A stretch of DNA of 63,161 nucleotides, filler included. It is 5 parts of 5 records of this genome, joined end to end, with 100 filler letters (N's around TTAATTAATTAA, not from the genome) between each part and the next. Parts side by side here need not be neighbours in the genome. Positions count along the whole stretch, not along the records: positions 1 to 20,390 come from SRR31156797_11248; 4 more parts are not named here. One strand, written 5' to 3'. How positions within the stretch are numbered: position 1 is the stretch's first letter; the number at the start of each line of letters is the position of its first letter. The position numbers were made by a program, and so were the translations under genes. Positions 313-12,935 of the stretch are shown here, one piece after another. The notes below the pieces were generated by a model. It was not told the origin of the DNA, searched no databases, and saw nothing but the letters and a program-made list of their open reading frames with translations.

Positions 313-1389
313 CTAATTGTATACTTTAGGTTCTATTTCATTTCTCAACACCATGTATCCATTCATAGCAAGAGCTTTCATTTCGTCCTCGCCAGGATAA
401 ACAACTACAGGAGCGATAAATGAAACCATATCTTTCACGTAGTTTACCAAATCAGGATTGTGAGCAATACCACCGGTTAGTAATATTCCATCAACATCAC
501 CTTTTAATACGGCTGCCATTTCACCAATCGATTTTGCTACCTGATACGACATCGCATCCTGAATCAATTTTGCTTTAGCATCACCATCTTTGGCTTTCAA
601 CTCAATCTCGTAAGCATCGTTAGTTCCCATGTGAGCAACTAGTCCACCTTCGCCTTTGATCATCTTTTTCAAATCATCAAGAGTATAGTCTCCGCTAAAA
701 CAGATTTTAGCTAAAGCACCTGCTGGCAATGTACCCGAACGCTCTGGTGAGAAAGGTCCTTCCCCATCCAATGCATTGTTTACATCAATTACTTTACCTT
801 TAAGGTGAGCACCTACAGAGATACCACCACCAAGGTGAGCCACGATTACATTGATATCTTCGTATTTTTTATCAACAGATTGAGCAAATGCACGACCTAT
901 TGCTTTTTGATTTAAAGCGTGAAAGATAGATACTCTCTGAAATTCTGGATGACCAGAAACTCGAGCAACATCAATCATTTCGTCAACCACTACAGGATCG
1001 GCAATATATGCCTTTGCCTTTGGTAGCGACTGTGCAATATTATCAGCAATTAGTCCACCAAGATTACTAGCGTGTTCTCCTAAAACTCCAACTCTCAAGT
1101 CTTCTTTCAGGCGATCGTTTACTTCATAGATACCAGATTCGATTGGCTTCACCAAACCACCTCGACCCACTACTGCTTCGATCAAATCAATTTGAATTTC
1201 TGCATCCACCATCTCTTGCATGATGATATTCTTACGAAATTCGAATTGCTCTGAAATTTGATTGTACTGAGAAAGTTCTTCTGCCGTGTGCTTGATATTC
1301 TTCAAGAAAACAGACTTATCTCCTTGAAATACTGCAATTTTAGTAGATGTAGATCCGGGATTAATTGCTAAGATTCTACGAGTTTCCAT
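313..1389 (-). CDS. buk: Butyrate kinase
   Basis: INPGSTSTK, VGRGG, HASNLG, FHALNQKA, AHLGGGISV, GEGPFSPERSG, YPGEDEM motifs; 358 aa. Confidence 0.95.
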   Translation of the reverse strand: METRRILAINPGSTSTKIAVFQGDKSVFLKNIKHTAEELSQYNQISEQFEFRKNIIMQEMVDAEIQIDLIEAVVGRGGLVKPIESGIYEVNDRLKEDLRVGVLGEHASNLGGLIADNIAQSLPKAKAYIADPVVVDEMIDVARVSGHPEFQRVSIFHALNQKAIGRAFAQSVDKKYEDINVIVAHLGGGISVGAHLKGKVIDVNNALDGEGPFSPERSGTLPAGALAKICFSGDYTLDDLKKMIKGEGGLVAHMGTNDAYEIELKAKDGDAKAKLIQDAMSYQVAKSIGEMAAVLKGDVDGILLTGGIAHNPDLVNYVKDMVSFIAPVVVYPGEDEMKALAMNGYMVLRNEIEPKVYN

Positions 1390-1590: not shown

Positions 1591-2928
1591 TTAACTCCAT
1601 TCATTAAACTGCGGAAGTTTATCCAAGGCAATCACATCTGGTTTTGCTTCGAAATGATCAAACAAATCGTTTGAAGGCCATTCCTTAACCGAACGCATTA
1701 CACGTCGCATCAAAACACTAAGATCACGAGTGAAATCAGATCCTCTCCAGGTAGAACTATTGGTGATAATCACAAAGCTGTATCCACCTACCTGATGCTT
1801 TAATAGTGCAGAACTTCCTGCAAGGGTTCCCGTTCTCCACCAGGTTTTTGTTCTTGTTCCTTTCCATCCAATTGGACTGTGACCGTTCTTATTTGGAGTG
1901 GTCATATAGGTAATACTCTTCTTCGAAAGTACATCCGGATGAGAACTTTCCCCATCGATGGCAAGCATAAACTTCATCAATTCGGCAGCCGATGCTACCC
2001 AACCGCCAGCACCACCCAATTCTTCAATATTGTTTCCACCATTTGATCTGAAAACTGTTTTTCCTGATCCATCGAAGGCTGAAATCTTAATTGCATTGGA
2101 TTGCTCGTAATAGTTCACCTCATTAGAGAAATGATCATCCTGTAAGTTTTTCCCTAAATGCATATCGAAAATACCTGCAGGATTTAAAATATGTGTCTTC
2201 ACGTAATCCTCGTAATCTTCACCTGAAGCTTTCTCTACAATCTTTTCAAGAATCACATAGCCTAAATTGGAATATCCTCCTCTACTTCCAGGAGTAAAAT
2301 GAAGTCTTCTTGAAAGGGCAAACTGTATGGTAGTTTCGGCGCTAATTGGTGGTTCCACCTTCATCTTTTTAGCAATAGATAAAGGCAAAAACATAGGATC
2401 ACCATATTTACTCGAATATCCAGCCGAATGACGTAACAGATGTTCAACGGTAATGCGCTTTGATCTTTTGTCTCTTATTTTTAAATAAATGGAATCATTC
2501 AAAATTCCATGTTCTCCAAAAGCATAATCATCGAGATGAAGTTTTCCTTCCTCTTTCAATTTCATGATTGCTGTGGCTGTAATCAATTTAGAAACACTAG
2601 CAATACGGAACAAGTGCGAAGGCTCTACTGGCTCCTCATTTTCCACGTTAGCATATCCATATCCTTTAGCAAAGATTAATTTTTCATCCTTAACCACTGC
2701 AACGGTAGCTCCTGCTACTTCCCACTTTCTTAAAAATCTGTTGATTAAACGATCCGCTCTGGCAGTTTTTACACTTTCTGAAAGATTATTTGATAATCGG
2801 TGTGAAACCGCTTCGATACTCTTATCGATAGGAATCGCCTCGGCTCCCTGTTTTGAGAAACTAAAATTCCGATCTAAAAAGACCAGAAGTACTATTATTA
2901 GAAAAGAAAATATTCTTCTTACAATCAT
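1591..2928 (-). CDS. Serine hydrolase, beta-lactamase/PBP class C-like, secreted
   Basis: N-terminal signal/anchor; FRIASVSK (SxxK), LLRHSAG, YSN. Confidence 0.85.
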   Translation of the reverse strand: MIVRRIFSFLIIVLLVFLDRNFSFSKQGAEAIPIDKSIEAVSHRLSNNLSESVKTARADRLINRFLRKWEVAGATVAVVKDEKLIFAKGYGYANVENEEPVEPSHLFRIASVSKLITATAIMKLKEEGKLHLDDYAFGEHGILNDSIYLKIRDKRSKRITVEHLLRHSAGYSSKYGDPMFLPLSIAKKMKVEPPISAETTIQFALSRRLHFTPGSRGGYSNLGYVILEKIVEKASGEDYEDYVKTHILNPAGIFDMHLGKNLQDDHFSNEVNYYEQSNAIKISAFDGSGKTVFRSNGGNNIEELGGAGGWVASAAELMKFMLAIDGESSHPDVLSKKSITYMTTPNKNGHSPIGWKGTRTKTWWRTGTLAGSSALLKHQVGGYSFVIITNSSTWRGSDFTRDLSVLMRRVMRSVKEWPSNDLFDHFEAKPDVIALDKLPQFNEWS

Positions 2929-3305
2929 CTACAAAATATTGATTCAACATGCACTCCCAACATCACAACTCATTCTTTCAATAAGTTAGCATGTACCTTT
3001 GTACTTAATTCGCTACAAAAATGTTTATATTTTTTTGAAATACCATTCTAAATTAAACGCAATTTAAATATAGTAAAAATAATAACACTTATCCCAGTAA
3101 TATGCTTTTTAATCTAAACAATACACTCATTCATCACACCAACAAAGTCAATCAAATCTAATTTAGAAAGATTATTCCCAATTGGGTATTCTAAACAAGA
3201 CAAGAATAAAGCCTATCGAAAATAGAATAACGACAGGCTTTTCGATTTATTTTAAAGGATGATATAATTATTCGTAAAAGTTAACTTGAATACTTGCCCA
3301 TACAT

Positions 3306-4586
3306 TTATCCGACATTGAACACATTCACTTTTTCATCAATTCCTTTGAGTTTAACCAATCCAAAATCAGACAATTCGGACTTGGAATCCAACAAATCAG
3401 CAATTTGCTTGCTAATTAAAAACTGAGTTTTAAATTTCTTATTTAATTGTTCTATACGAGAAGCCATTATTACATTCTTGCCGGCAATAGAAAATTGTTT
3501 GCGAATTTCGTTACCAATATTTCCGGTAACCACTTCACCACAATGCAATCCGATCCCAACCTTTGTCGAATCTCCATTCTCCTCCATTTTAAGATGATCA
3601 ATCGCTTCGATAATCTCAATACCCGCATGATAGGAATCATTGGCGTGATTCTCGTTTTTTACTGCAATACCGAATGAGGCCATAAATCCATCTCCAAGAA
3701 TCTGATGAATGATTCCATTGTTCTTTTCGATGATTCGAATCAAAGGATCGAATATGGCATTCTGAAACTCAATCGTCTCTTCAGGACTCTGATGATCTGC
3801 CATAAGGGTAAAGTTTCGAATATCCAGAAACATGATCGATCCGGTTACTTTGTGCCCTACGGAATCATTTCTGTGCAATATCAATTCATTCGCAACATCT
3901 TTAGATAACTGCTGCCCCAGTAAGGATTCTATCTCCTGCTGTTCTTCTCTACTATTCAAAAAACTGTTCACTCTTTTCCGAATCTCATTGGCAACCACAC
4001 CTGCAATTGTTCCTGTTGTTAGTAAGCCAAAGCTTCGCATAGTGTAAATTTCTTTCATCTGCACAACATCCCCAGATGGATTTAAGTATTCTATTCCCCA
4101 CATCGCCACAACAAAATAACCCGAAGCAGCAAGTATTCCGGCACTCAACGAAATCTTAAAATCTAGATGCATCGCCGACAACATTAAAAGAATGAAGTAA
4201 AAGATCAATCCGTCATATTCCAAGATTAAAAGAGAATGATCGTACTTAATGGTGTGATACAAAACGATTGCCGGTAGTATGAATTCAATCAACAAATTGG
4301 GAATCAGAATCTTTTTAGGAACCGGAATATCTTTCTTAATAGCATAAGACAAACGTAAGAATATTAAGAGTTCGAACACACAAAACACTAACCACCAAAA
4401 GATTAATCCGTCAATAAAATTGATCTGATTCAAATAATGCCTTAACAAATTGGGCACCAGAAAATGGATTAATGGAACGAGAATGGAGCTAAATATAAAC
4501 AGCATCAATATGATTCCAACCCTTTTTCGTTCGATCTTTAAAAATTCGGGATGCAGAGATTCCTTAAAATTAGTGTGTAGCAGCAT
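3306..4586 (-). CDS. Membrane-anchored class III nucleotidyl cyclase with non-canonical specificity residues
   Basis: About 6 hydrophobic helices, then MFLDIRNFT, HQILGDGFMA, GLHCGEV, FSIAGKNVIMASRIE. Confidence 0.9.
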   Translation of the reverse strand: MLLHTNFKESLHPEFLKIERKRVGIILMLFIFSSILVPLIHFLVPNLLRHYLNQINFIDGLIFWWLVFCVFELLIFLRLSYAIKKDIPVPKKILIPNLLIEFILPAIVLYHTIKYDHSLLILEYDGLIFYFILLMLSAMHLDFKISLSAGILAASGYFVVAMWGIEYLNPSGDVVQMKEIYTMRSFGLLTTGTIAGVVANEIRKRVNSFLNSREEQQEIESLLGQQLSKDVANELILHRNDSVGHKVTGSIMFLDIRNFTLMADHQSPEETIEFQNAIFDPLIRIIEKNNGIIHQILGDGFMASFGIAVKNENHANDSYHAGIEIIEAIDHLKMEENGDSTKVGIGLHCGEVVTGNIGNEIRKQFSIAGKNVIMASRIEQLNKKFKTQFLISKQIADLLDSKSELSDFGLVKLKGIDEKVNVFNVG

Positions 4587-4611
4587 GACTATTTACATCT
4601 TTAGGTTTCAA

Positions 4612-5910
4612 TCATATATATCTTTCTTCTCTTGACTTGGACTTGGCTAGAATTTTCTCGGCTATTTCCGGATACTTCTTTAATACCTTATCAAACTCTT
4701 TTCGGTGTAATTCATAAATATCCGAATAACCTATTGAGACAACTGTTGCGGTTCTTTCTGTTTTTTTAAACATGGCAATTTCGCCCATAAAATCACCCGT
4801 TCTAAGTATTGTCAGCTGTTTTAACTCATCTGCTGAAAGAACTTTCAATTTGCCTCTTTGCACAAAAAACATAGATTTTCCTTTATCTCCTGCTCGAAAC
4901 AAATAATCTCCTGGTGTTAATATCATCGGCTTTAGATATTGAGCAATTTCTCGCACGAACTGATCATCAACACTCTCAAATAGTGTAATATCTTTAATTA
5001 CATTTTTCTTAAACTCTAACTGCAGTTCATTCCTTAAGCCAAATGGAAGAGCGTCCATTAGCTCCGATTCGTCGTATCCTAATTTTTGCTTTAACTCATA
5101 AGTAAAATAGTCTCCTATGCGGTGTTCCAAATCCTTTGATATTTCCTGATAATGAATCAAAGCACGCAACTTTTCCATATTGTCGATAAAACGCTGTTCT
5201 GCAGGATTTTTCTTTGTAAAAACTCCAACGATACTACCAACTAACAGAGCAAGCAAAGCCACACCTGAGAATTGCAAGATAATATTAAACAGCATTTCTA
5301 AATTGCCATGTGGTACAATATCTCCATATCCAACCGATGTGATTGTACTAACCGTATAATACAATGCTTGTATATAATTATCGATATTTGATAGCCCAGG
5401 TTCAATTCCATGAACCGCTACCCAAACGCATGCGCACCAATGTGAGAATAAAAATGTTCCGAATACCAACAACCAAAATAAGATACTGGAAGTGTTTCGA
5501 ATGTTTCGCATTTGAAAATGACGCATAGTTTGAAATACCTTTACCCATTTAAACAAACGCAAGAGTTGCCAAAGAGGTCCGGATAATAAAAATGCATAGG
5601 GCAAAACAGCTAATACATCTGCGATAAAATATTTCCAGGAAGAATAGGTATCCCAATAAACATCCTTCAAAACAGAATGACTCCTGATCTTTTTATATCG
5701 GTAAATATTAAAAAGTAAATCCAAAAGAAATAATCCAGAAATGCTAAAATCCAGTACCCAATACCACCTATTGGCTCTCAAATCGAATAAAAAATCCAAT
5801 GGTAGTATACTAGCTTGAACCAAAACAGCTACTATTATAATTATCCTCCACGAAGAATCGAATGCGGACTTTAGACGTTTGCTTTGCATTTGGGTTAGAA
5901 TTTCCATCAA
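4612..5910 (-). CDS. Cyclic-nucleotide-gated-like K+ channel (6TM + C-linker + CNBD)
   Basis: S4-like LLRLFKWVK, pore TITSVGYGD, phosphate-binding cassette GEIAMFKKTERTATV. Confidence 0.9.
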   Translation of the reverse strand: MMEILTQMQSKRLKSAFDSSWRIIIIVAVLVQASILPLDFLFDLRANRWYWVLDFSISGLFLLDLLFNIYRYKKIRSHSVLKDVYWDTYSSWKYFIADVLAVLPYAFLLSGPLWQLLRLFKWVKVFQTMRHFQMRNIRNTSSILFWLLVFGTFLFSHWCACVWVAVHGIEPGLSNIDNYIQALYYTVSTITSVGYGDIVPHGNLEMLFNIILQFSGVALLALLVGSIVGVFTKKNPAEQRFIDNMEKLRALIHYQEISKDLEHRIGDYFTYELKQKLGYDESELMDALPFGLRNELQLEFKKNVIKDITLFESVDDQFVREIAQYLKPMILTPGDYLFRAGDKGKSMFFVQRGKLKVLSADELKQLTILRTGDFMGEIAMFKKTERTATVVSIGYSDIYELHRKEFDKVLKKYPEIAEKILAKSKSREERYI

Positions 5911-5939
5911 ATAAACATGAATACATTAAATAACAATAT

Positions 5940-5947
5940 CAAAAATA
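5940..5947 (-). promoter_or_regulatory. Bacteroidota -7 element upstream of the channel-cyclase pair
   Basis: Minus strand TATTTTTG matches TAnnTTTG about 30 nt upstream of the channel ORF; no well-spaced -33 TTTG seen. Confidence 0.4.
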
Positions 5948-6006
5948 GATAAAAGCATCCTATTTATCGGTAAGTTGCAAAACAAGCTTATTCCCTTTCC
6001 TCTAAT

Positions 6007-7125
6007 TTAAGCAACTTTTTTATACCTACTCACTGCGAAAGAAATCATTACAATTGAATACAAGGATAAGATTTGCAACTCCTTAAGAACATCAGTAAAA
6101 CCGGATCCCTTCAACATTATCATTCTAATGATCTTGATAAAATAGGCAACAGGATTCAAGAGATTCAGTTTTTGTGCCCAGTCAGGCATGCTTTCAACCG
6201 GAGTGAACAAGCCGCTCATCATTAAGAAAACCACCATAAAAAACCAGGCAATAAACATGGCTTGCTGTTGCGTATCTGTTTGTGTTGATATTAATAAACC
6301 AAATCCTAAAATGGTGAGCAAATAAACAAAAGCAACCAAATAAATTAGCCAAACCGATCCCAATAAAGGAATTTTAAAAAGAAAGGCAGCGATTAACAAA
6401 CCCAATCCCAATTCGAAAAAACCAATTACCAAAAAGGGAATTAACTTGCCAATTAAGAACTGATATCTCTTTATCGGCGTCACATTTATCTGCTCTATTG
6501 TTCCAATTTCTTTTTCCCGAACCACATTCATTGCAGATAAGAACAAGCCAACAACGGTGATCAATAATACCAAAATACCTGGCAGCATGTAAGGTATATA
6601 TTTCATTTCTGGATTGTACAAATACGAATAAGTACTTTGAATTTGCAATGTATTATTATCCTTCCCAACTGAGTGGATATTCGCATTGGTACTTTGGTTG
6701 TATTCCTGGATTACAGAGTGAATGTAAGCATTGTAAAGTCCGGCTGCACTGGCATCAATCGCATTCACCAATACCTGAACCGATGCGCTTTCTTTTTTAT
6801 CTATAGCTTTGCCAAATCCATTTTCAAAATTAAGAACTGCATCAACCTTATCTCTATACAGTTCTTTTTCCGCCTCATCAATAGAAAAACCCGAACCTAC
6901 TACCGTAAAAAAAGGAGAACCACTGAACTTGGATACGATTTGTCGGGAATGTGTTGACAAATCATTATCTACGACATAAATATTGGTATTTTTCATTTCG
7001 TAGGTTGCCGCAAAAACCAAAACACAAAGCTGAATGATTGGCATTGCAAAAATAATTGGCAACATACTTTTGTTTCTAAAAATCTGTAGAAACTCCTTCT
7101 GTAATATGTATTTAATTGTTCTCAT
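6007..7125 (-). CDS. ABC-2 type permease (YbhR-like)
   Basis: KEFLQIFR start, VREKEIGTIEQINVTP, SGLFTPVESMP; multiple TM helices. Confidence 0.9.
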   Translation of the reverse strand: MRTIKYILQKEFLQIFRNKSMLPIIFAMPIIQLCVLVFAATYEMKNTNIYVVDNDLSTHSRQIVSKFSGSPFFTVVGSGFSIDEAEKELYRDKVDAVLNFENGFGKAIDKKESASVQVLVNAIDASAAGLYNAYIHSVIQEYNQSTNANIHSVGKDNNTLQIQSTYSYLYNPEMKYIPYMLPGILVLLITVVGLFLSAMNVVREKEIGTIEQINVTPIKRYQFLIGKLIPFLVIGFFELGLGLLIAAFLFKIPLLGSVWLIYLVAFVYLLTILGFGLLISTQTDTQQQAMFIAWFFMVVFLMMSGLFTPVESMPDWAQKLNLLNPVAYFIKIIRMIMLKGSGFTDVLKELQILSLYSIVMISFAVSRYKKVA

Positions 7126-7180: not shown

Positions 7181-8287
7181 TTATTCCAATCTAATTTTAA
7201 ATTTGTTTACGCTCAATCCAATAAAGCCCACAGTCATTCCTAAAAGAATAAGCGTCTCCTTCCAAACAAATTCAAAACCAGTTCCTTTTAGCATGATATT
7301 TTTAATGATCACAATAAACCACCTTGGCGGAATAATGTGACTTATTACCTGAAGAGGCAAAGGCATGTTGCGAATTGGAAAAATGAATCCTGAAAGCAGA
7401 ATGGTCGGTAGCATCAGTGCGAACATCGATAGCATCATGGCAACCTGTTGACTGTTGGATACAGTGGAAATAAATATCCCAATTGATAGTGCCAAAAAGA
7501 TGAATAGAACACTTTCCGCCATTAACAAAGCAAAACTGCCCAATACCGGAACGCCAAAAACAAAATACCCCATTCCCACTATTACCAGTGCATTGATAAA
7601 GGACAACAACAAATAAGGCGTGACTTTACCCAATATAATCTGCCATGGCCGTAAAGGAGATACCAAAAGGATTTCCATTGTTCCCAGTTCTTTCTCTCTG
7701 GCTATTGATATGGAAGTCATCATTGCTGAAACCAGCATTAAAATGGTTGCCATAATTCCCGGCACAAACATGAAAACACTTTCCATATTCTCATTAAAAT
7801 ACATACGTTCCTTTATGACTATTTGATTAGGGGTAACATTCGATTTGTTAATTTCCACATTATAGTTTTGCAAAATACCTTGCAGGTAATTTACTTCCAG
7901 GCTTGCCATATTTGGTTCTGATGCATCTGCCAATATTTGAGCTTTCGCCCTTGTATTTCGAATCAAATTCTTTCCAAACTCGGGTTCAAAAACCAAGACA
8001 ACTTTGGTTTCACCACCCCGAAATACTTCTTCAACCTCATCTACATTTTTCAGGTTTTCAATTAAATCAAAATAACCTGATGAAGTAATCTTATTAATTA
8101 TTTCTGCTGTATATTCATCTTTTGAATGATCTAAAACTGCCATTTTCACATCCTTCAAATCATTGGTAATCACAAATCCGAACAACATCAATTGGACAAT
8201 GGGCATTCCAAATAAAATAAGCATCGATCGCTTATCTCTAAATATATGATAGAACTCTTTTCTTAAAAATCCGATAAATCGCTTCAT
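7181..8287 (-). CDS. ABC-2 type permease (YbhS-like)
   Basis: KEFYHIFRD, AREKELGTMEILLVSP, LSGFIFPIRNMP. Confidence 0.9.
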   Translation of the reverse strand: MKRFIGFLRKEFYHIFRDKRSMLILFGMPIVQLMLFGFVITNDLKDVKMAVLDHSKDEYTAEIINKITSSGYFDLIENLKNVDEVEEVFRGGETKVVLVFEPEFGKNLIRNTRAKAQILADASEPNMASLEVNYLQGILQNYNVEINKSNVTPNQIVIKERMYFNENMESVFMFVPGIMATILMLVSAMMTSISIAREKELGTMEILLVSPLRPWQIILGKVTPYLLLSFINALVIVGMGYFVFGVPVLGSFALLMAESVLFIFLALSIGIFISTVSNSQQVAMMLSMFALMLPTILLSGFIFPIRNMPLPLQVISHIIPPRWFIVIIKNIMLKGTGFEFVWKETLILLGMTVGFIGLSVNKFKIRLE

Positions 8288-8312: not shown

Positions 8313-9059
8313 CTACTCTTGATAATTACTTTTTCGTGCCAAACGAAGGAAAACTTCATCCATATCCTTGGCTTCAAATTGTTCTTTTAGCCCTTTGGGT
8401 GTATCCAATGCTTCAATTTTTCCATCCACCATAATCGAGATTCTATCGCAATATTCTGCCTCATCCATATAATGTGTAGTCACAAATACCGTAATCCCAT
8501 TTCGCGATGCTTCGTAAATCAAATCCCAAAATTGTCTTCGGGTAACAGGATCTACTCCTCCTGTGGGTTCATCGAGAAATACGATTTTAGGATTGTGAAA
8601 AATCGCAACCGAAAAAGCCAGCTTCTGCTTCCATCCCAATGGCAGTTCGCCAATTCTTTTGTTTCTGGCATGCGATAAATTCAACTTGTCGAGTAGTTCA
8701 TCAGACTTTTGCTTAATTTCTTTTGATGACATGCCATAAATTCCAGCATAAAAACGGATGTTCTCAAATACGGTAAGATCATCGTAGAGAGAAAATTTCT
8801 GACTCATATAGCCAATATTTCGTTTCAATTCTTCTCTCTGCTTGTAAACATTTAAACCTGCCACCATTATTTCTCCTGAAGTGGGATAAGAAAGTCCGCA
8901 AAGAATCTTCATGGCTGTTGTTTTTCCTGCTCCGTTCGCACCAAGGAAACCAAAAATTTCACCAGCAAACACATCAAACGTCAAATTATCGTTTGCCGTA
9001 AAAGCACCAAACTTTTTGTATAGGTTTCTTACTGATATTACTTTTTTCTCTGAATTCAT
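8313..9059 (-). CDS. ABC transporter ATP-binding protein
   Basis: Walker A GANGAGKT, variant signature LPLGWKQK, Walker B FLDEPT. Confidence 0.92.
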   Translation of the reverse strand: MNSEKKVISVRNLYKKFGAFTANDNLTFDVFAGEIFGFLGANGAGKTTAMKILCGLSYPTSGEIMVAGLNVYKQREELKRNIGYMSQKFSLYDDLTVFENIRFYAGIYGMSSKEIKQKSDELLDKLNLSHARNKRIGELPLGWKQKLAFSVAIFHNPKIVFLDEPTGGVDPVTRRQFWDLIYEASRNGITVFVTTHYMDEAEYCDRISIMVDGKIEALDTPKGLKEQFEAKDMDEVFLRLARKSNYQE

Positions 9060-9982
9060 TGCTGTGTTGAGTTTTCAATACTTAAAGCCATAAAACAATC
9101 TTCAATTCCTGCTTGTGCTTTCTCTATTTTCAAATCATCATGTCCCTTCAATTGGAGATATTCCTTTAAATCTGAAATTGAAAATTCATCTCTTGTATCG
9201 GTATAATGAATGCTTTGCCCAAATGGAAACACGGAATTAACGTAAGGATAATCCCTTACATCGAGAATCAATTGGTAAGTATCCGTCCCTTGAATAGAAT
9301 ACAAATCTTTTTCGAAATTTGAAATGATTCCTTCCGGAGTATCCAAACTTAAAATCTCACCATCCTGCATTAAGGCAACTCGCTCGCATAAATTGGCTTC
9401 ATCCATATAAGGCGTTGCCACAACAATTGTAATTCCTTTACTTTTCAAGCTTTTTAGCATTTGCCAAAATTCACTTCGCGAAACTGCATCAACACCTGTT
9501 GTTGGTTCATCGAGCAAAAGTATTTTAGGTTGATGAACCAAAGCGCAACAAAGTGCCAGCTTTTGTTTCATCCCGCCTGAAAGTTTACCTGCCAATCTAT
9601 GTTTAAATGGTTCAATTTGCTGCCATACATCTCGAATCATATCCATATTATCTTCTATTCGAGTGTTAAAAACGGTGGCAAAAAATTGAAGGTTCTCAAT
9701 TACACTTAAATCCTGATAAAGAGAAAATTTACCCGGCATATAGCCCAACAAATTTCTTATTTCCTTATACTCTTTGCGCATATCGTATCCGCAAAGTGTG
9801 GCAGAGCCTGAATCTGGAAGGAGTAATGTTGCCATCAGGCGAAACAAACTTGTTTTCCCCGCGCCATCAGGTCCAATTAAACCAAACAACTCACCGGATC
9901 CAATCTCTAAATTGATGTTCTTCAAGGCCTGTACTTCTTCGTAAGATTTGTACAGATTCTCTATGCTAATTTTAGATTCCAT
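9056..9982 (-). CDS. ABC transporter ATP-binding protein
   Basis: GPDGAGKT, LSGGMKQK, LLDEPT; 4-nt overlap with the next gene. Confidence 0.92.
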   Translation of the reverse strand: MESKISIENLYKSYEEVQALKNINLEIGSGELFGLIGPDGAGKTSLFRLMATLLLPDSGSATLCGYDMRKEYKEIRNLLGYMPGKFSLYQDLSVIENLQFFATVFNTRIEDNMDMIRDVWQQIEPFKHRLAGKLSGGMKQKLALCCALVHQPKILLLDEPTTGVDAVSRSEFWQMLKSLKSKGITIVVATPYMDEANLCERVALMQDGEILSLDTPEGIISNFEKDLYSIQGTDTYQLILDVRDYPYVNSVFPFGQSIHYTDTRDEFSISDLKEYLQLKGHDDLKIEKAQAGIEDCFMALSIENSTQQ

Positions 9983-9985
9983 ATG

Positions 9986-10876
9986 CTATTTGAATCTAAT
10001 TTCCCCTGGCATTCCTATTTTTAGGCGCCCATCATTTGCCACTTTTACCTTAACTGCATAAACCAATTTTACACGCTCCTCTTTGGTTTGTATAATTTTA
10101 GGCGTGAATTCCGATTGAGAAGAAATCCAGCTTACCATTCCTTTTAATGTCTCATTTTCGTTCTTGTTCTTATCAATTAAAACATCTACTTCCTGTCCTA
10201 ATTTCACCTCCGACAACTGATCTCCACTTATATAAACCCGCAAATCCAAACTCCTTAAATCAGCCAATTTAAACAGTGGAGTTCCTGTATTCACCATTTC
10301 GTAATCTTCATGGTATTTCTCTAAAACCGTTGCTGGTTCGGGAACGTAAATTTTACTCTTTTCAATCAAGTCGTTAATGGCGTCAATTTTTCGGGCAATA
10401 TTATCCAACTCTCCAAACACCTTTGCATTCTCTGTTTTCACAGATTTAATTTGTTTTTGAATCACCAATACATTCCCGTTAATATCATCAACTTCTTTTT
10501 TTGTAGCCGCTCCATCCTCAAACATTTTATCGATTCTCACCTTGTCTTTCCCCAGAATAGCTAACTGCTCCTTATAAACTTCGATTCTGGAAATGATATT
10601 TTGAATACCCGATGCAATGGATTTCTTTTGTGCCTTTAGTTGTTCTTTTTGCAGATAAAGTTGAGTAGTATCAATTAAACCAACTTGTTGAGCCTCTGTA
10701 AAAACATCACCTTCCTCGATATTCAATTGCAATAACTTACCACTATTCTCTGCTGAAATTTTGTAATCCGCAACTTCGAAATTACCATAAGCATCCGATT
10801 CATTCTCGGTTGAATTGCATGCTGAACTTAAAATCAAAAGCCCCAGACCTATTCCAATTATTGTAGTTAATCTCAT
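9986..10876 (-). CDS. HlyD-family membrane fusion protein (YbhG-like)
   Basis: Lipobox-like LSSAC, coiled coil, EFTPKIIQTKEER, LKIGMPGE. Confidence 0.88.
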   Translation of the reverse strand: MRLTTIIGIGLGLLILSSACNSTENESDAYGNFEVADYKISAENSGKLLQLNIEEGDVFTEAQQVGLIDTTQLYLQKEQLKAQKKSIASGIQNIISRIEVYKEQLAILGKDKVRIDKMFEDGAATKKEVDDINGNVLVIQKQIKSVKTENAKVFGELDNIARKIDAINDLIEKSKIYVPEPATVLEKYHEDYEMVNTGTPLFKLADLRSLDLRVYISGDQLSEVKLGQEVDVLIDKNKNENETLKGMVSWISSQSEFTPKIIQTKEERVKLVYAVKVKVANDGRLKIGMPGEIRFK

Positions 10877-10897: not shown

Positions 10898-12181
10898 CTA
10901 TATTCCTTTTATCCTTCTATACTCAGCAAGCGATTGCTGCAACTGAATCAAATGATATTTCTTATTTAATTTCGCTTGAATTTCTTTGTTTAAATCTTCC
11001 AGATAATCACTGGAAGTAATCACTCCATTATCCAATTGAGAAGCCGAACTTTTTGACACTTCCTCTTGCAATTCTATAATGGCATCATCCTTTTGCAAAA
11101 GCAGTTTGAAGGTATTGATATTGCTCAACTCACTTTCTAATTCTATCAATTGATTCTGAGTAAAACTCAATTCGTTCGTGGTAATAATATCTTTCTGAAT
11201 TGCAATCTCCTTTTGCTTTCTACGATTCACTTTCCAATCGAAAATATTCCATGAAACTTTTGCTCCAATCATGTAGTAGGTATCAAATTTATCATTCAGC
11301 TGGTTGTAACCCGGGTTACCATAGCCAAATTGCCCAAATCCTGTAACAACAGGATATCTATCTTTCTTTACCAAATCAATCTGAGATTCCAACAAGGATT
11401 TTTGGCTGGAATAAAACTGATATTCTGGTCGAGTCTTCTTATCCAGTTTAGGCATTACATTATCGGAGAATTCCGTACTTTCAAGTTTGGTCTCAATTCC
11501 AACATCTTTACCCATTAATTGCGACAATACTACAAATGATCTTACCTCATGAGAATTCAATTCCTGCATTTGCTGATCGACTAAAAGCAACTCTGATTGT
11601 AAAACTTTTAAATTGGCAGGCAATACTACACCATTCTCAACAGCCGATTTTACTTGTTGTAATCGCTCCAAAATGATTTTCTGCTTATCAACCAGTACCA
11701 ACTTGTTTTTGCGAACCAACTGAATACCAAAATATGCTGTATTAACTCTCTCTCTTAGCTGATACATCTGAATTTCCAGATTCTTAAGCTGAACTTCCGA
11801 AGTTTTCTTTTCTATGTCAATTCTACTTTGAGTTTTTCTACCATCATAAATCAATTGCTCAACATCAAGGTTAAGTGAATATTGATCTTTAGGTGCAGTA
11901 GGTGTATCCATTCCTGGCAATGAAATTCCTGTTACATCTGACTGATAACTTGCTTTTCCATTGGCATACAATTTTGGTAAATACGATATCTTAACATTAT
12001 CCACATTTAAATCAGCAGACAATTTTATAAGCTCCAGTCCTTTCCCTAACGGAAAATTCTCCTGCACCTCTTTTTGACATTGATCTAAACTAAGCGCACT
12101 CTCCTGTGCCCAGGTTTGATTGCCTAAAAAAGAGATTATCAAAAAAAGAATCAATTGGCTCCTTCTTGCAATTACTTTCAT
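10898..12181 (-). CDS. TolC-family outer membrane efflux protein
   Basis: Signal peptide, YLPKL...QLIYDG and YPVV...WNIFDW repeats; operon context. Confidence 0.88.
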   Translation of the reverse strand: MKVIARRSQLILFLIISFLGNQTWAQESALSLDQCQKEVQENFPLGKGLELIKLSADLNVDNVKISYLPKLYANGKASYQSDVTGISLPGMDTPTAPKDQYSLNLDVEQLIYDGRKTQSRIDIEKKTSEVQLKNLEIQMYQLRERVNTAYFGIQLVRKNKLVLVDKQKIILERLQQVKSAVENGVVLPANLKVLQSELLLVDQQMQELNSHEVRSFVVLSQLMGKDVGIETKLESTEFSDNVMPKLDKKTRPEYQFYSSQKSLLESQIDLVKKDRYPVVTGFGQFGYGNPGYNQLNDKFDTYYMIGAKVSWNIFDWKVNRRKQKEIAIQKDIITTNELSFTQNQLIELESELSNINTFKLLLQKDDAIIELQEEVSKSSASQLDNGVITSSDYLEDLNKEIQAKLNKKYHLIQLQQSLAEYRRIKGI

Positions 12182-12191
12182 AATCTAAACA

Positions 12192-12806
12192 TTAAATTTT
12201 TATGGATTGAATTATAAAATCGGCAACTTTATCCGCCCTAGTCTTTAACACTTCATCAAAATTTACATTTTGATACAAAAGTTCACTGGCAATAGGTTTA
12301 CTTGCAAAAGGGAATATAGATAAGCTAATAATATTCAAAATCAATTCTCTTGGATCAATTTCACGAATTTCTCCATTTTTAATTGCCTTAGATATTTGAG
12401 TCAAAGTCTTTTCCTTACCAGCCATAATACCTTCAACATTTATTAGTTTTAAAATTCTGCTAGGATCTGTATTTACTTCATTAATAATGAAATTTGGCAG
12501 AAATGGATACTCAACTAAAATCTTATTATAATGCCTGCATATATTTCTTATTTTTTGAAACAACTCCGAATCATCAGCTAAAAATGCGGCTAAGGGACGT
12601 GCTAATTTCTTAAATGCTTCTTCAAATATTTGCTCAAATAATTTCTCCTTACTCCTATAGTAATAATGCAAAAGAGCTTTGTTAATGCCAGCACTATCTG
12701 CAATTTCCTGCATGCGTGCACCTGCTAATCCTTTTTGCGCAAAAATCTTTCTTGCTGCTTCAAGAATATTCTCTTGTGTTTCGACTGATTTTTTCTCCTC
12801 TTTCAT
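12192..12806 (-). CDS. TetR/AcrR family transcriptional regulator
   Basis: N-terminal HTH ILEAARKIFAQKGLAGARMQEIADSAGINKALLHYYYRSKEKLF. Confidence 0.95.
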   Translation of the reverse strand: MKEEKKSVETQENILEAARKIFAQKGLAGARMQEIADSAGINKALLHYYYRSKEKLFEQIFEEAFKKLARPLAAFLADDSELFQKIRNICRHYNKILVEYPFLPNFIINEVNTDPSRILKLINVEGIMAGKEKTLTQISKAIKNGEIREIDPRELILNIISLSIFPFASKPIASELLYQNVNFDEVLKTRADKVADFIIQSIKI

Positions 12807-12809
12807 ACT

Positions 12810-12935
12810 TTAACCATTTGGTTAATTTACACTCAAAAATAAAACCATCCGGTTTAACCGTTTGGTTAATGCAAATATATGGGAAGAAATAGAACTAACA
12901 AAACATTTGGATATTTTTTTAACCATATGGTTAAA
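12810..12935. promoter_or_regulatory. Four palindromic operator-like sites (TTAACC-N4-GGTTAA) around the TetR operon promoter
   Basis: TTAACCATTTGGTTAA 12810-12825, AAAACCATCCGGTTTA 12841-12856, TTAACCGTTTGGTTAA 12854-12869, TTAACCATATGGTTAA 12919-12934. Minus-strand -7 box TATATTTG at 12872-12879 with TTTG near 12899-12902. Confidence 0.75.

Follow-up and report, generated by a model that had tools for sequence, protein, structure and literature searches.

A conserved gene pair of an SthK-type channel and a six-helix class III cyclase in a marine Bacteroidales bacterium

SthK and other bacterial cyclic-nucleotide-gated channels are in wide use as models for structural work and optogenetics, and the open-access literature and bioRxiv preprints that we searched give no physiological input for them. 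Cyclic nucleotides also serve in Pycsar and Pucsar systems, in which infection leads a cyclase to produce cCMP, cUMP or cGMP and the cell gains protection from phage. In earlier work, SthK is activated by cAMP, selective for K+ and inhibited by cGMP (PMC5987880); the 6TM adenylyl cyclase Rv1625c uses K296, D365 and N372 (PMC4174876); bCNG channels have an unknown physiological role (PMC13591265); and Pycsar and Pucsar are defined by effectors of the CNBD-TIR or 3TM type (PMC11224242; 10.64898/2026.08.12.744502).

The locus described here comes from a marine Bacteroidales bacterium and lies in a window of 63,161 nt, by which we mean the whole stretch of DNA analysed, filler included. The initial annotation had reported a complete 6TM-GYG-CNBD channel 25 nt upstream of a co-oriented multi-TM class III cyclase, and both minus-strand ORFs are present as described (Table 1); within the span that it gave to the unit, 3306-5910, the two ORFs stand but the channel start does not, as orthologues of 423-429 aa place it at the ATG at 5889-5887 and not at the TTG at 5910. 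We think it on balance probable that the two genes form an envelope-linked signalling unit converting cNMP into K+ flux. On this reading, the transcription unit comprises just these two genes, is specific to its lineage and inherited vertically, and closes the 3' end of a tripartite ABC-2 exporter cluster that has a TetR gene at its head.

Table 1. Features of the channel-cyclase locus and its exporter cluster, in window coordinates.
Feature	Position	Strand	Basis
Hairpin, 11-bp stem then U-rich tail, 65 nt past the cyclase stop; candidate terminator	3208..3241	-	Fold
6TM - long helical domain - class III cyclase, 426 aa	3306..4586	-	Pfam; AC5 C1/C2 and Cya2 alignments; AF2; Foldseek
Spacer, channel stop to cyclase ATG, 25 nt	4587..4611	-	Without terminator-like site in scan
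SthK-type cyclic-nucleotide-gated K+ channel, 425 aa	4612..5889	-	Pfam; SthK alignment; orthologue-set start
Promoter/leader region, three conserved blocks	5890..6006	-	Alignment of 15 orthologous loci
Leader block GTTTATTTGA	5907-5916	-	Leader alignment
Leader block TTTTATCTATTTTTG, holds -7 box	5940-5954	-	Leader alignment
Leader block CTTACCGATAAA	5963-5974	-	Leader alignment
Two ABC-2 permease genes	6007-7125, 7181-8287	-	Pfam; RbbA-like in NCBIfam, below cut-off
Two ABC ATPases	8313-9059, 9056-9982	-	Pfam; NCBIfam
HlyD-type adaptor	9986-10876	-	Pfam; NCBIfam
Outer-membrane efflux protein	10898-12181	-	Pfam; NCBIfam
TetR-family regulator, head of exporter cluster	12192..12806	-	ORF; NCBIfam TetR-type matches all below cut-off

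Two genes behind one leader

The channel has the make-up expected of the SthK type, six TM segments with a K+ filter followed by a C-linker and a C-terminal CNBD with its phosphate-binding cassette. In the ORF at 4612-5910(-), Pfam finds Ion_trans (E 1.5e-19), Ion_trans_2 (E 3.8e-14) and cNMP_binding (E 6.8e-18), and residues 21-427 align with SthK over the whole length, C-linker and CNBD included (E 1.2e-64). S1-S6 are present, the filter reads TSVGYGD (aa 184-190), and the CNBD carries GEIAMF (aa 369-374) and RTAT (aa 379-382); VGYGD is unchanged in all 11 aligned channel sequences, and G369, E370, R379, T380 and A381 of the cassette are invariant in the same number of aligned relatives. By homology, the channel is probably gated by cAMP or cGMP and selective for K+. 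The cyclase, for its part, shares the 6TM membrane architecture of Rv1625c/Cya. Its residues 250-420 form a Guanylate_cyc domain (Pfam, E 5.7e-25), N-terminal to which the AF2 model (pLDDT 80.9) has six predicted TM helices, with helices at 13-43, 55-85, 91-116, 120-140, 143-168 and 174-223; TM6 runs on into the long helical domain that leads to the cyclase fold. Searched with Foldseek, the model matches Rv1625c/Cya (7yzk) with an E value of 2.5e-13 over 433 columns, and human AC9 and AC5 are also matched full-length.

The spacer between the two genes measures 11-45 nt in 11 orthologous loci, and the non-coding DNA ahead of the pair is conserved as well. Its three blocks were aligned across 10 channel-first and five cyclase-only loci, leaving out L089, L090, L091 and L104; they lie 5' of the channel in the former and 5' of the cyclase in the latter. 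As the blocks stay in front of whichever gene comes first, the channel-cyclase unit has a promoter/leader of its own. C40, C41, G42 and a later TTT are invariant. Among the loci left out, L089 and L090 show the same leader, the mosaic locus L091 lacks the ACCGAT block, and the cyclase-only locus L104 has a variant block further upstream. The candidate -7 box that the initial annotation had assigned to the pair, TATTTTTG at 5940-5947(-), is present and sits inside a block kept in all 15 aligned loci; taken alone, the motif shows no enrichment across the window (76 matches, with 83.9 expected), and the weight of the box comes entirely from its conservation in orthologues. A sigma-70 scan found 8 sites where shuffled sequence gives 14.4, and 2 terminators against 1.9, with Bacteroidota promoters lying outside the scope of the scan. 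The hairpin noted earlier downstream of the pair, at about 3210-3241, was found again (z = -1.75 for the 121-nt fold, 7 of 200 shuffles folding equally well); it is missing from the list of the terminator scan because its loop exceeds 8 nt. An Rfam search of 2900-6200 at E <= 1 returned no RNA family, and the leader thus holds no known riboswitch. As for transcripts, two RNA-library contigs from one study of a close relative cover the 3' part of the channel and 62 nt of the 5' end of the cyclase; bridging the junction, they give a weak hint of co-transcription, as contigs of a relative that may contain DNA. The RNA contigs, from four runs, leave 5902-6148 and 3963-4508 uncovered, gaps that mark neither the start nor the end of a transcript.

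Inheritance of the pair

Within a sample of 60 genomes of the family, 12 carry the channel, 17 carry the cyclase and 11 have the two together (Fisher test, p = 4e-7, relatedness ignored). Where both occur, they adjoin, with the channel upstream in all 11 cases, and the flanks are syntenic, with ABC2 genes bordering the pair at one end and a beta-lactamase-family gene and butyrate kinase at the opposite end. Six of the 17 cyclase genomes lack the channel and have the cyclase in the same slot; in the tree, the cyclase-only genomes are nested among the channel-bearing ones, five of them in one starred clade (98/96). In Marinifilum and Ancylomarina, then, the pair is vertically inherited. Beyond this group, the loci sampled showed no adjacency. 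Among the 80 loci kept from a scan of genome contigs, the channel adjoins in six, all of them Marinifilaceae, and none of the channel loci examined in other Bacteroidota (19) or in Spirochaetota (30) has a cyclase domain within 1.5 kb, in a search whose positive controls worked. The adjacency is confined to a single clade. Of 401 genomes at phylum level, 20 have the channel, 17 the cyclase and three both, in two cases on separate contigs; with the centre genome removed, the co-occurrence is not significant (p = 0.17). No channel-cyclase fusion was seen among longer proteins, which is weak evidence; the only fusion there was a TPR-cyclase of 753 aa.

Such a distribution leaves room for the view that the two genes are co-located, and perhaps co-transcribed, yet independent: the channel would hear the cAMP of other cyclases, the main targets of the 6TM cyclase would be Crp/Fnr-type regulators or the exporter, and their adjacency would persist by inheritance in one clade. 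The related genomes do contain 2-6 cyclase-domain and 9-14 cNMP-binding-domain matches each, none of the 49 other channel loci has an adjacent cyclase, and the cyclase-only genomes and the phylum-level test fit the same view. On the other hand, gene order, the 11-45 nt spacing and the promoter blocks have been kept down to 57% channel identity, the cyclase adjoins the channel in 11 of 12 channel genomes, and the sole channel without a cyclase, in G061, is on a mosaic contig. We consider independence unlikely, though an alternative to be taken seriously. The same genome contents do count against one word in the initial annotation, which had called the sensor-to-cNMP-to-ion-flux circuit self-contained: with other cyclases and CNBD proteins in related genomes, six cyclase-only genomes and one channel-only genome, the word is not supported. 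The circuit itself remains a reasonable reading, given the conserved unit, its own leader blocks, the adjacency in 11 of 12 genomes and, as a weak hint, the RNA contigs.

A signalling unit of this kind would work as follows. The membrane domain of the homodimer-type 6TM cyclase probably takes a signal from the membrane or envelope, an input perhaps tied to the exporter that travels with the cyclase in several lineages. The catalytic domain would then make a 3',5'-cyclic nucleotide, with cAMP the likeliest product, and the CNBD of the tetrameric SthK-type channel would bind it, opening the K+-selective pore and altering the K+ content of the cell along with its membrane potential. A single conserved promoter/leader driving both genes would keep maker and reader in step.

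The cyclase family and its neighbours

The active site of the cyclase is only half canonical. The metal-binding Asp residues D255 and D299 and the transition-state Arg R377, the last aligned to its counterpart in AC5 C2 and Cya2, are present in 57 of 57 cyclase relatives, as befits class III. The other three of the six canonical catalytic and specificity residues are absent, Q295, S366 and I373 standing in for Lys, Asp and Asn. Q295 and S366 are likewise found in 57/57 and correspond neither to an AC pair (Lys/Asp, Lys/Thr) nor to a GC pair (Glu/Cys, Glu/Gly); position 373, where Cya2 and AC5 C2 have their Asn, is Ile in 52 relatives, Val in five and Asn in none, leaving the family without the ribose-orienting transition-state Asn. 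Because all relatives share Gln, Ser and Ile (or Val at 373) in these places, the product of the cyclase is uncertain, and judged from its residues, the enzyme may have low activity or a product other than cAMP. The nearest precedent appears to be Rv0386, which reportedly has a Gln/Asn pair. In the membrane domain, the intramembrane Glu E101 is invariant (57/57) and E72 largely conserved.

The genes next to the pair were initially described as unrelated to it, a description that does not survive comparison with other lineages. The ABC-2 permeases directly upstream of the channel-cyclase unit here have the cyclase itself as the next gene downstream in distant lineages: the order OEP-HlyD-ABC-ABC-ABC2-ABC2-cyclase, with the cyclase last, recurs in Cytophagales, the exporter genes stand in the same order in L024-L029, and in a similar arrangement in Ignavibacteria, the cyclase comes directly or one gene after paired ABC-2 permeases. 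Among 68 loci from outside Marinifilaceae whose upstream sequence reaches 1.5 kb or more, co-oriented ABC-2 permeases directly precede the cyclase in eight and the full order is found in five; the exporter-linked loci fall in three separate clades of the cyclase FastTree. In other lineages, a protein with HD and PycTM domains adjoins the same cyclase family in 20 of 67 loci. A complex prediction for the two ABC-2 permeases and cyclase aa 1-240, run without controls and without supplied alignments, scored 0.00 and speaks neither for nor against contact. The open-access literature and bioRxiv, searched for a Bacteroidetes cyclase linked to ABC-2 or HlyD, yielded nothing.

One could imagine from this an exporter-coupled sensor cyclase, whose membrane domain, with E101 and E72, would sense how loaded the ABC-2 tripartite pump is, or what it carries, in Marinifilaceae, Cytophagales and Ignavibacteria, where the cyclase follows that pump, and whose Gln/Ser/Ile pocket would make a nucleotide other than plain cAMP; it would be wired to the SthK-type channel in Marinifilum and Ancylomarina, turning efflux or envelope stress into a change of membrane potential, and to the HD-PycTM protein in other Bacteroidota. 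We regard this fuller scheme as distinctly improbable as a whole. The HD-PycTM membrane protein that it draws in may be a housekeeping cousin of Pycsar effectors.

The altered pocket could also mean that the cyclase domain has little or no enzymatic activity and that the protein is a membrane sensor acting through contacts with the exporter or channel, with no diffusible nucleotide. Besides the replacements found throughout the family, the unequal match to the mammalian AC5 halves (47 bits to C1 against 21 bits to C2) would suit such a role, and the conserved placement after ABC-2 permeases lacks a messenger-based explanation. Pseudo-enzymes, however, usually lose the metal Asp, the transition-state Arg and the motifs around them, whereas the Asp pair, the Arg, GDGFMA and GNIGN are invariant here across phyla and the partner in the channel-cyclase unit has an intact CNBD, making this reading very unlikely.

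The initial annotation had also proposed abortive-infection defence by depolarisation. In a Pycsar-like system of this sort, phage would activate the cyclase, its nucleotide would open the channel and the membrane potential would collapse. PADLOC does match the cyclase with PycC models (best E 1.8e-20) and the channel CNBD with PycTIR models, and the cyclase family has its HD-PycTM neighbours; but these PADLOC matches reflect generic cyclase and CNBD homology, the cyclase being matched better by Pfam Guanylate_cyc. The PycTM domain gives no match in the window and occurs in 165 of the 401 Bacteroidota genomes, usually as a single copy, and so behaves like a housekeeping gene there. With a syntenic, vertically inherited locus among housekeeping genes, a cyclase relative in 0 of 29 candidate stretches of viral contigs, viral-contig channel matches that lack the CNBD part, and a K+-selective 6TM channel in place of a CNBD-TIR or 3TM pJV1-spdB3 PycTM effector, the defence proposal is hardly credible. 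Ordinary signalling within the cell describes the pair better than defence against phage.

The locus matters in two ways. An SthK-type channel is locked with a specific membrane cyclase in a single transcription unit in cultured, named species (Marinifilum fragile, M. flexuosum and Ancylomarina euxinus), and their close relatives in Labilibaculum, having lost only the channel, are natural knock-outs, so that the role of a bacterial CNG channel becomes testable by ordinary genetics and flux assays. Moreover, a cyclase family with a non-canonical active site recurs downstream of an ABC-2 tripartite exporter or next to an HD-PycTM protein, and these recurrent neighbours suggest that Bacteroidota and Ignavibacteria have an envelope-linked cyclic-nucleotide pathway not yet described; this wider result may matter as much as the pair itself.

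Comparison with known systems

The channel resembles the prokaryotic CNG channels SthK, LliK and MloK1 in S1-S6, the GYG filter, the long C-linker and the CNBD with its Arg-Thr cassette. It shares only about 30-45% identity with SthK, however, and stands in an operon with a cyclase, an adjacency not seen in the 30 Spirochaetota and 19 other Bacteroidota loci. It differs from bCNG, an MscS-like heptamer with a CNBD, in being a 6TM tetrameric K+ channel; Pfam finds no MscS pore in it, the matches being Ion_trans, Ion_trans_2 and cNMP_binding only. The cyclase has the 6TM domain, helical domain, cyclase fold, metal Asp pair and Arg of Rv1625c/Cya and the class IIIa adenylyl cyclases, each half of a mammalian AC, but belongs to a separate sequence family, with Q295, S366 and I373 where Rv1625c has K296, D365 and N372. 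Pycsar and Pucsar systems, like the pair, join a class III-type cyclase to a cNMP-responsive membrane protein; they part from it in effector type, in mobility pattern and in cyclase architecture, since their cyclases are stand-alone, fast-evolving, patchy and island-like, whereas this one is 6TM-anchored in a syntenic slot across genera. Searching the open-access literature and bioRxiv for a natural pairing of an SthK-type channel with a cyclase, we found nothing relevant. A parallel exists that is man-made: in PAC-K and RoCK (PMC6218482, PMC12662207), a light-activated cyclase is combined with SthK, following the same logic from cyclase through cNMP to an SthK-type channel. Those tools are engineered from unrelated organisms, whereas the pair in Marinifilum and its relatives is natural and co-inherited, and its cyclase carries a membrane input domain.

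The channel-cyclase pair within and beyond Marinifilaceae

The channel-cyclase feature is real, well conserved, restricted to one clade and assembled from known families. Minus-strand genes continue uninterrupted from 12806 down to 3306 in the window (see table), ending with the SthK-type channel and the class III cyclase, and measurement of the spacer between these two gave the 25 nt reported in the initial annotation. The closest named relatives of the cyclase are from Marinifilum (84% identity), followed by Ancylomarina and Labilibaculum (66–76%), which places the window in a Marinifilum-like member of the Marinifilaceae. The stretch upstream of the TetR gene contains a palindrome of the form AACCAnnTGGTT in several copies, aaccatatggtt and aaccaaatggtt among them, which probably serve the exporter cluster as TetR operators.

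Coordinates of features in the window and in relative loci (Lnnn, fetched loci; Gnnn, genomes of the family sample)
Feature	Position	Strand	Remark
TetR palindromes	12815-12935		upstream of TetR gene
TetR-type regulator	12192-12806	-	heads minus-strand run
Outer-membrane efflux protein, HlyD-type adaptor, two ABC ATPases		-	follow TetR in this order
Two ABC-2 permeases	ending at 6007	-	followed by channel, then cyclase
Candidate -7 box, TATTTTTG	5940-5947		
Channel	4612-5889	-	
Cyclase	3306-4586	-	
Hairpin	3208-3241		downstream of cyclase
Beta-lactamase-family serine hydrolase	1591-2928		beyond cyclase
Butyrate kinase	313-1389		beyond cyclase; above NCBIfam cut-off
HD-PycTM gene	L045:7101-8300	-	with L060, 2 of 20 loci
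HD-PycTM gene	L060:7411-8562	+	plus 18 further loci
Channel-only locus, G061	L091:1-4260		
Cyclase-only locus, G018	L104:3007-4263	-	

Scanning species representatives with the cyclase alignment gave 600 matching stretches; 549 proved to be relatives, and the 80 best loci were retained. The channel adjoins the cyclase in six of these 80 (four Marinifilum, one Marinifilaceae MAG and Ancylomarina euxinus). The gene order ABC2b-ABC2a-(channel)-cyclase-hydrolase-butyrate kinase, where ABC2a and ABC2b are the permeases, is common to seven Marinifilaceae loci; in Labilibaculum sp. K2S this slot lacks the channel, and no full-length channel was found elsewhere in its genome (best E 4.7e-7). In the family sample of 60 genomes, the channel is present in 12 and the cyclase in 17: both occur in 11, the cyclase only in six and the channel only in one. 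The channel lies upstream of and adjacent to the cyclase in all 11 two-gene genomes, and the conservation of the pair, which the initial annotation had proposed to check across Bacteroidota, is thus seen within the family. The sole channel-only genome, G061, is doubtful as such. Compared with locus L092 of genome G007, its locus is 100% identical over 1–700 and 2301–2763 and 99.7% identical over 2001–2300, no alignment was found over 1401–2000 or past the channel stop codon, and the place of the cyclase is taken by an NlpC/P60-like lipoprotein gene and repeated tRNA-like segments; the mosaic could reflect recombination or an assembly chimera. In a maximum-likelihood cyclase tree rooted with Prolixibacteraceae sequences, five of the cyclase-only rows group in a single clade (support 98/96) that lies nested among channel-bearing rows, so loss of the channel is the simplest history of the cyclase-only genomes. 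In the cyclase-only genome G018, a MutS-like ATPase (assigned by eye) stands upstream of the cyclase in place of an ABC-2 permease, and the exporter link is therefore broken there.

The pairing is not general. With SthK-type channels called at E <= 1e-40, they were found in 20/401 Bacteroidota and 57/301 Spirochaetota genomes; a family-derived cyclase-domain HMM, which finds 5/5 positive controls, placed a cyclase domain within 1.5 kb in none of the 19 other channel loci of Bacteroidota and none of the 30 retrieved from Spirochaetota. The cyclase family itself occurs in 17/401 Bacteroidota genomes and together with the channel in three, two of which carry the genes on different contigs.

Channel, cyclase and their leader

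The reading of the first gene as a complete 6TM-GYG-CNBD channel is borne out: it carries Ion_trans, Ion_trans_2 and cNMP_binding domains (Pfam), aligns with SthK from S1 to the end of the cyclic-nucleotide-binding domain (CNBD; E 1.2e-64), ahead of LliK and eukaryotic CNG, HCN and KCNH channels, and contains the selectivity filter TSVGYGD and the phosphate-binding cassette GEIAMF...RTAT. Its start, placed initially at 5910 (a TTG), needs correction, as the orthologues, 423–429 aa long, begin in alignment with the ATG at 5889. The multi-TM class III cyclase was rightly recognized; the Guanylate_cyc domain covers residues 250–420 (Pfam), and the AlphaFold2 model, built with a 57-sequence alignment (mean pLDDT 80.9), has six long helices within the first 170 residues, the sixth continuing as a 50-residue helix into the catalytic fold. 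The model matches Rv1625c/Cya (7yzk; Foldseek E 2.5e-13, 433 columns) and also human AC9 and AC5. Within predicted membrane helices, E101 is conserved in 57/57 relatives, E72 in 47/57 (Gln in the rest), H140 in 40/57 and D142 in 45/57, and these charged or polar residues could bind a ligand or an ion within the membrane domain.

Catalytic equivalents were obtained from an alignment with AC5 C1/C2 and Cya2 and the canonical residues of Rv1625c as listed in PMC4174876: the cyclase has D255 and D299 for the metal-binding D256 and D300, and R377 for the transition-state R376, whereas the substrate-specifying K296 and D365 are replaced by Q295 and S366, and the transition-state N372 by I373. The Gln/Ser pair matches neither the adenylyl nor the guanylyl signature. 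All six positions are constant in 57/57 relatives, save for Val instead of I373 in five, and the fact that the metal and Arg residues and the motifs around them do not vary across phyla speaks for a working enzyme. In mutagenesis of mammalian adenylyl cyclases, loss of the transition-state Asn lowers turnover, and by analogy its absence would be expected to do so here. That the product is cAMP is only a guess, the first one to make since the CNBD of the channel most resembles that of SthK, a channel opened by cAMP (PMC5987880).

The unit has its own conserved promoter/leader: in an alignment of the 120–146 nt before its first gene, the conserved blocks TTTACCGAT, TTTTATCTATTT(TT) and TTT(A/C)TTTTGA occur in this order in 10 channel-first and 5 cyclase-only loci, and between leader and cyclase the channel ORF with its spacer is cleanly present or absent. 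The upstream region matched no Rfam family. The -7 box proposed initially does exist and closes the second block on its 3' side, but its motif is no more abundant in the window than expected by chance (76 matches vs 83.9); the downstream hairpin is there but not among the sites listed by a simple terminator scan. Contigs in four marine-sediment RNA libraries (two studies) cover portions of both genes, and two contigs of one study run from the 3' part of the channel gene into 62 nt at the 5' end of the cyclase gene. At the junction their sequence is replaced, so they derive from a relative; they are compatible with co-transcription, nothing more.

Other companions of the cyclase

Among the best 80 of the 549 cyclase loci, 73 lie outside Marinifilaceae and were surveyed for companions. 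Of the 68 with enough upstream sequence, 8 have co-oriented ABC-2 permeases immediately upstream of the cyclase, and five of these 8 show the order OEP-HlyD-ABC-ABC-ABC2-ABC2-cyclase (OEP, outer-membrane efflux protein), which is the window's own order without the channel, with 41–70% protein identity to the window. Exporter-linked cyclases fall in three separate clades, Marinifilaceae, Chryseolinea/Ohtaekwangia and Ignavibacteria, as counted in a midpoint-rooted FastTree cyclase tree with supports not inspected. Directly 3' of the cyclase, 20 of 67 non-Marinifilaceae loci encode a protein of ~400 aa, here HD-PycTM, with an HD domain and a PycTM domain (the latter PF18967, E 8e-35), co-oriented in 9 of the 20 with gaps of 0–91 nt. 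The PycTM domain occurs in 165/401 Bacteroidota genomes, mostly in single copy, and HD-PycTM thus has the look of a housekeeping protein related to Pycsar effectors; it may sense the product of the cyclase or break it down. The domain is found in 13/17 cyclase-positive Bacteroidota genomes (p = 0.003, relatedness ignored), and five Marinifilaceae genomes have one copy each, elsewhere in the genome. In five Cyclobacteriaceae-type loci (L052, L055, L068, L013 and L030), a polyphosphate kinase 1 gene immediately follows the cyclase, in three of them separating it from the HD-PycTM gene. With an exporter or HD-PycTM beside it according to lineage, the cyclase is the anchor, next to which lineages set different membrane proteins.

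Signalling, defence and known systems

Overall, the unit most likely serves signalling from cyclic nucleotide to K+ conductance, attached to an envelope exporter locus. The circuit is not the self-contained one envisaged initially, as five related genomes each have 2–6 cyclase-domain and 9–14 CNBD matches; the channel may respond to other cyclases, and Crp-type regulators may be targets of this one. The suggested role in abortive-infection defence is highly improbable: PADLOC models of PycC match the cyclase (best E 1.8e-20) and those of PycTIR the channel's CNBD, but such hits reflect the domains in general and fall short of the Pfam match. On viral contigs, 0/29 candidates were confirmed as cyclase relatives, and matches to the channel are confined to its pore and voltage-sensor part (21–29% identity). 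Pycsar and Pucsar, as defined in PMC11224242 and 10.64898/2026.08.12.744502, combine a fast-evolving cyclase that stands alone with a CNBD-TIR or 3TM effector, whereas the cyclase here is membrane-anchored, slowly evolving and placed in a fixed syntenic housekeeping neighbourhood.

The interest of the signalling unit lies in the tractable natural context that it offers for a much-studied model channel and in the unstudied cyclase family, with its non-canonical active site, that it exposes. No description of a natural operon of an SthK-type channel and a cyclase was found in open-access papers and bioRxiv; the roles of bCNG channels, MscS-like channels with a CNBD, remain unknown according to a recent review (PMC13591265). 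Light-activated cyclases and SthK are in use together as optogenetic silencers (PMC6218482 and PMC12662207), but while that combination is engineered, the pair in the window is a natural one.
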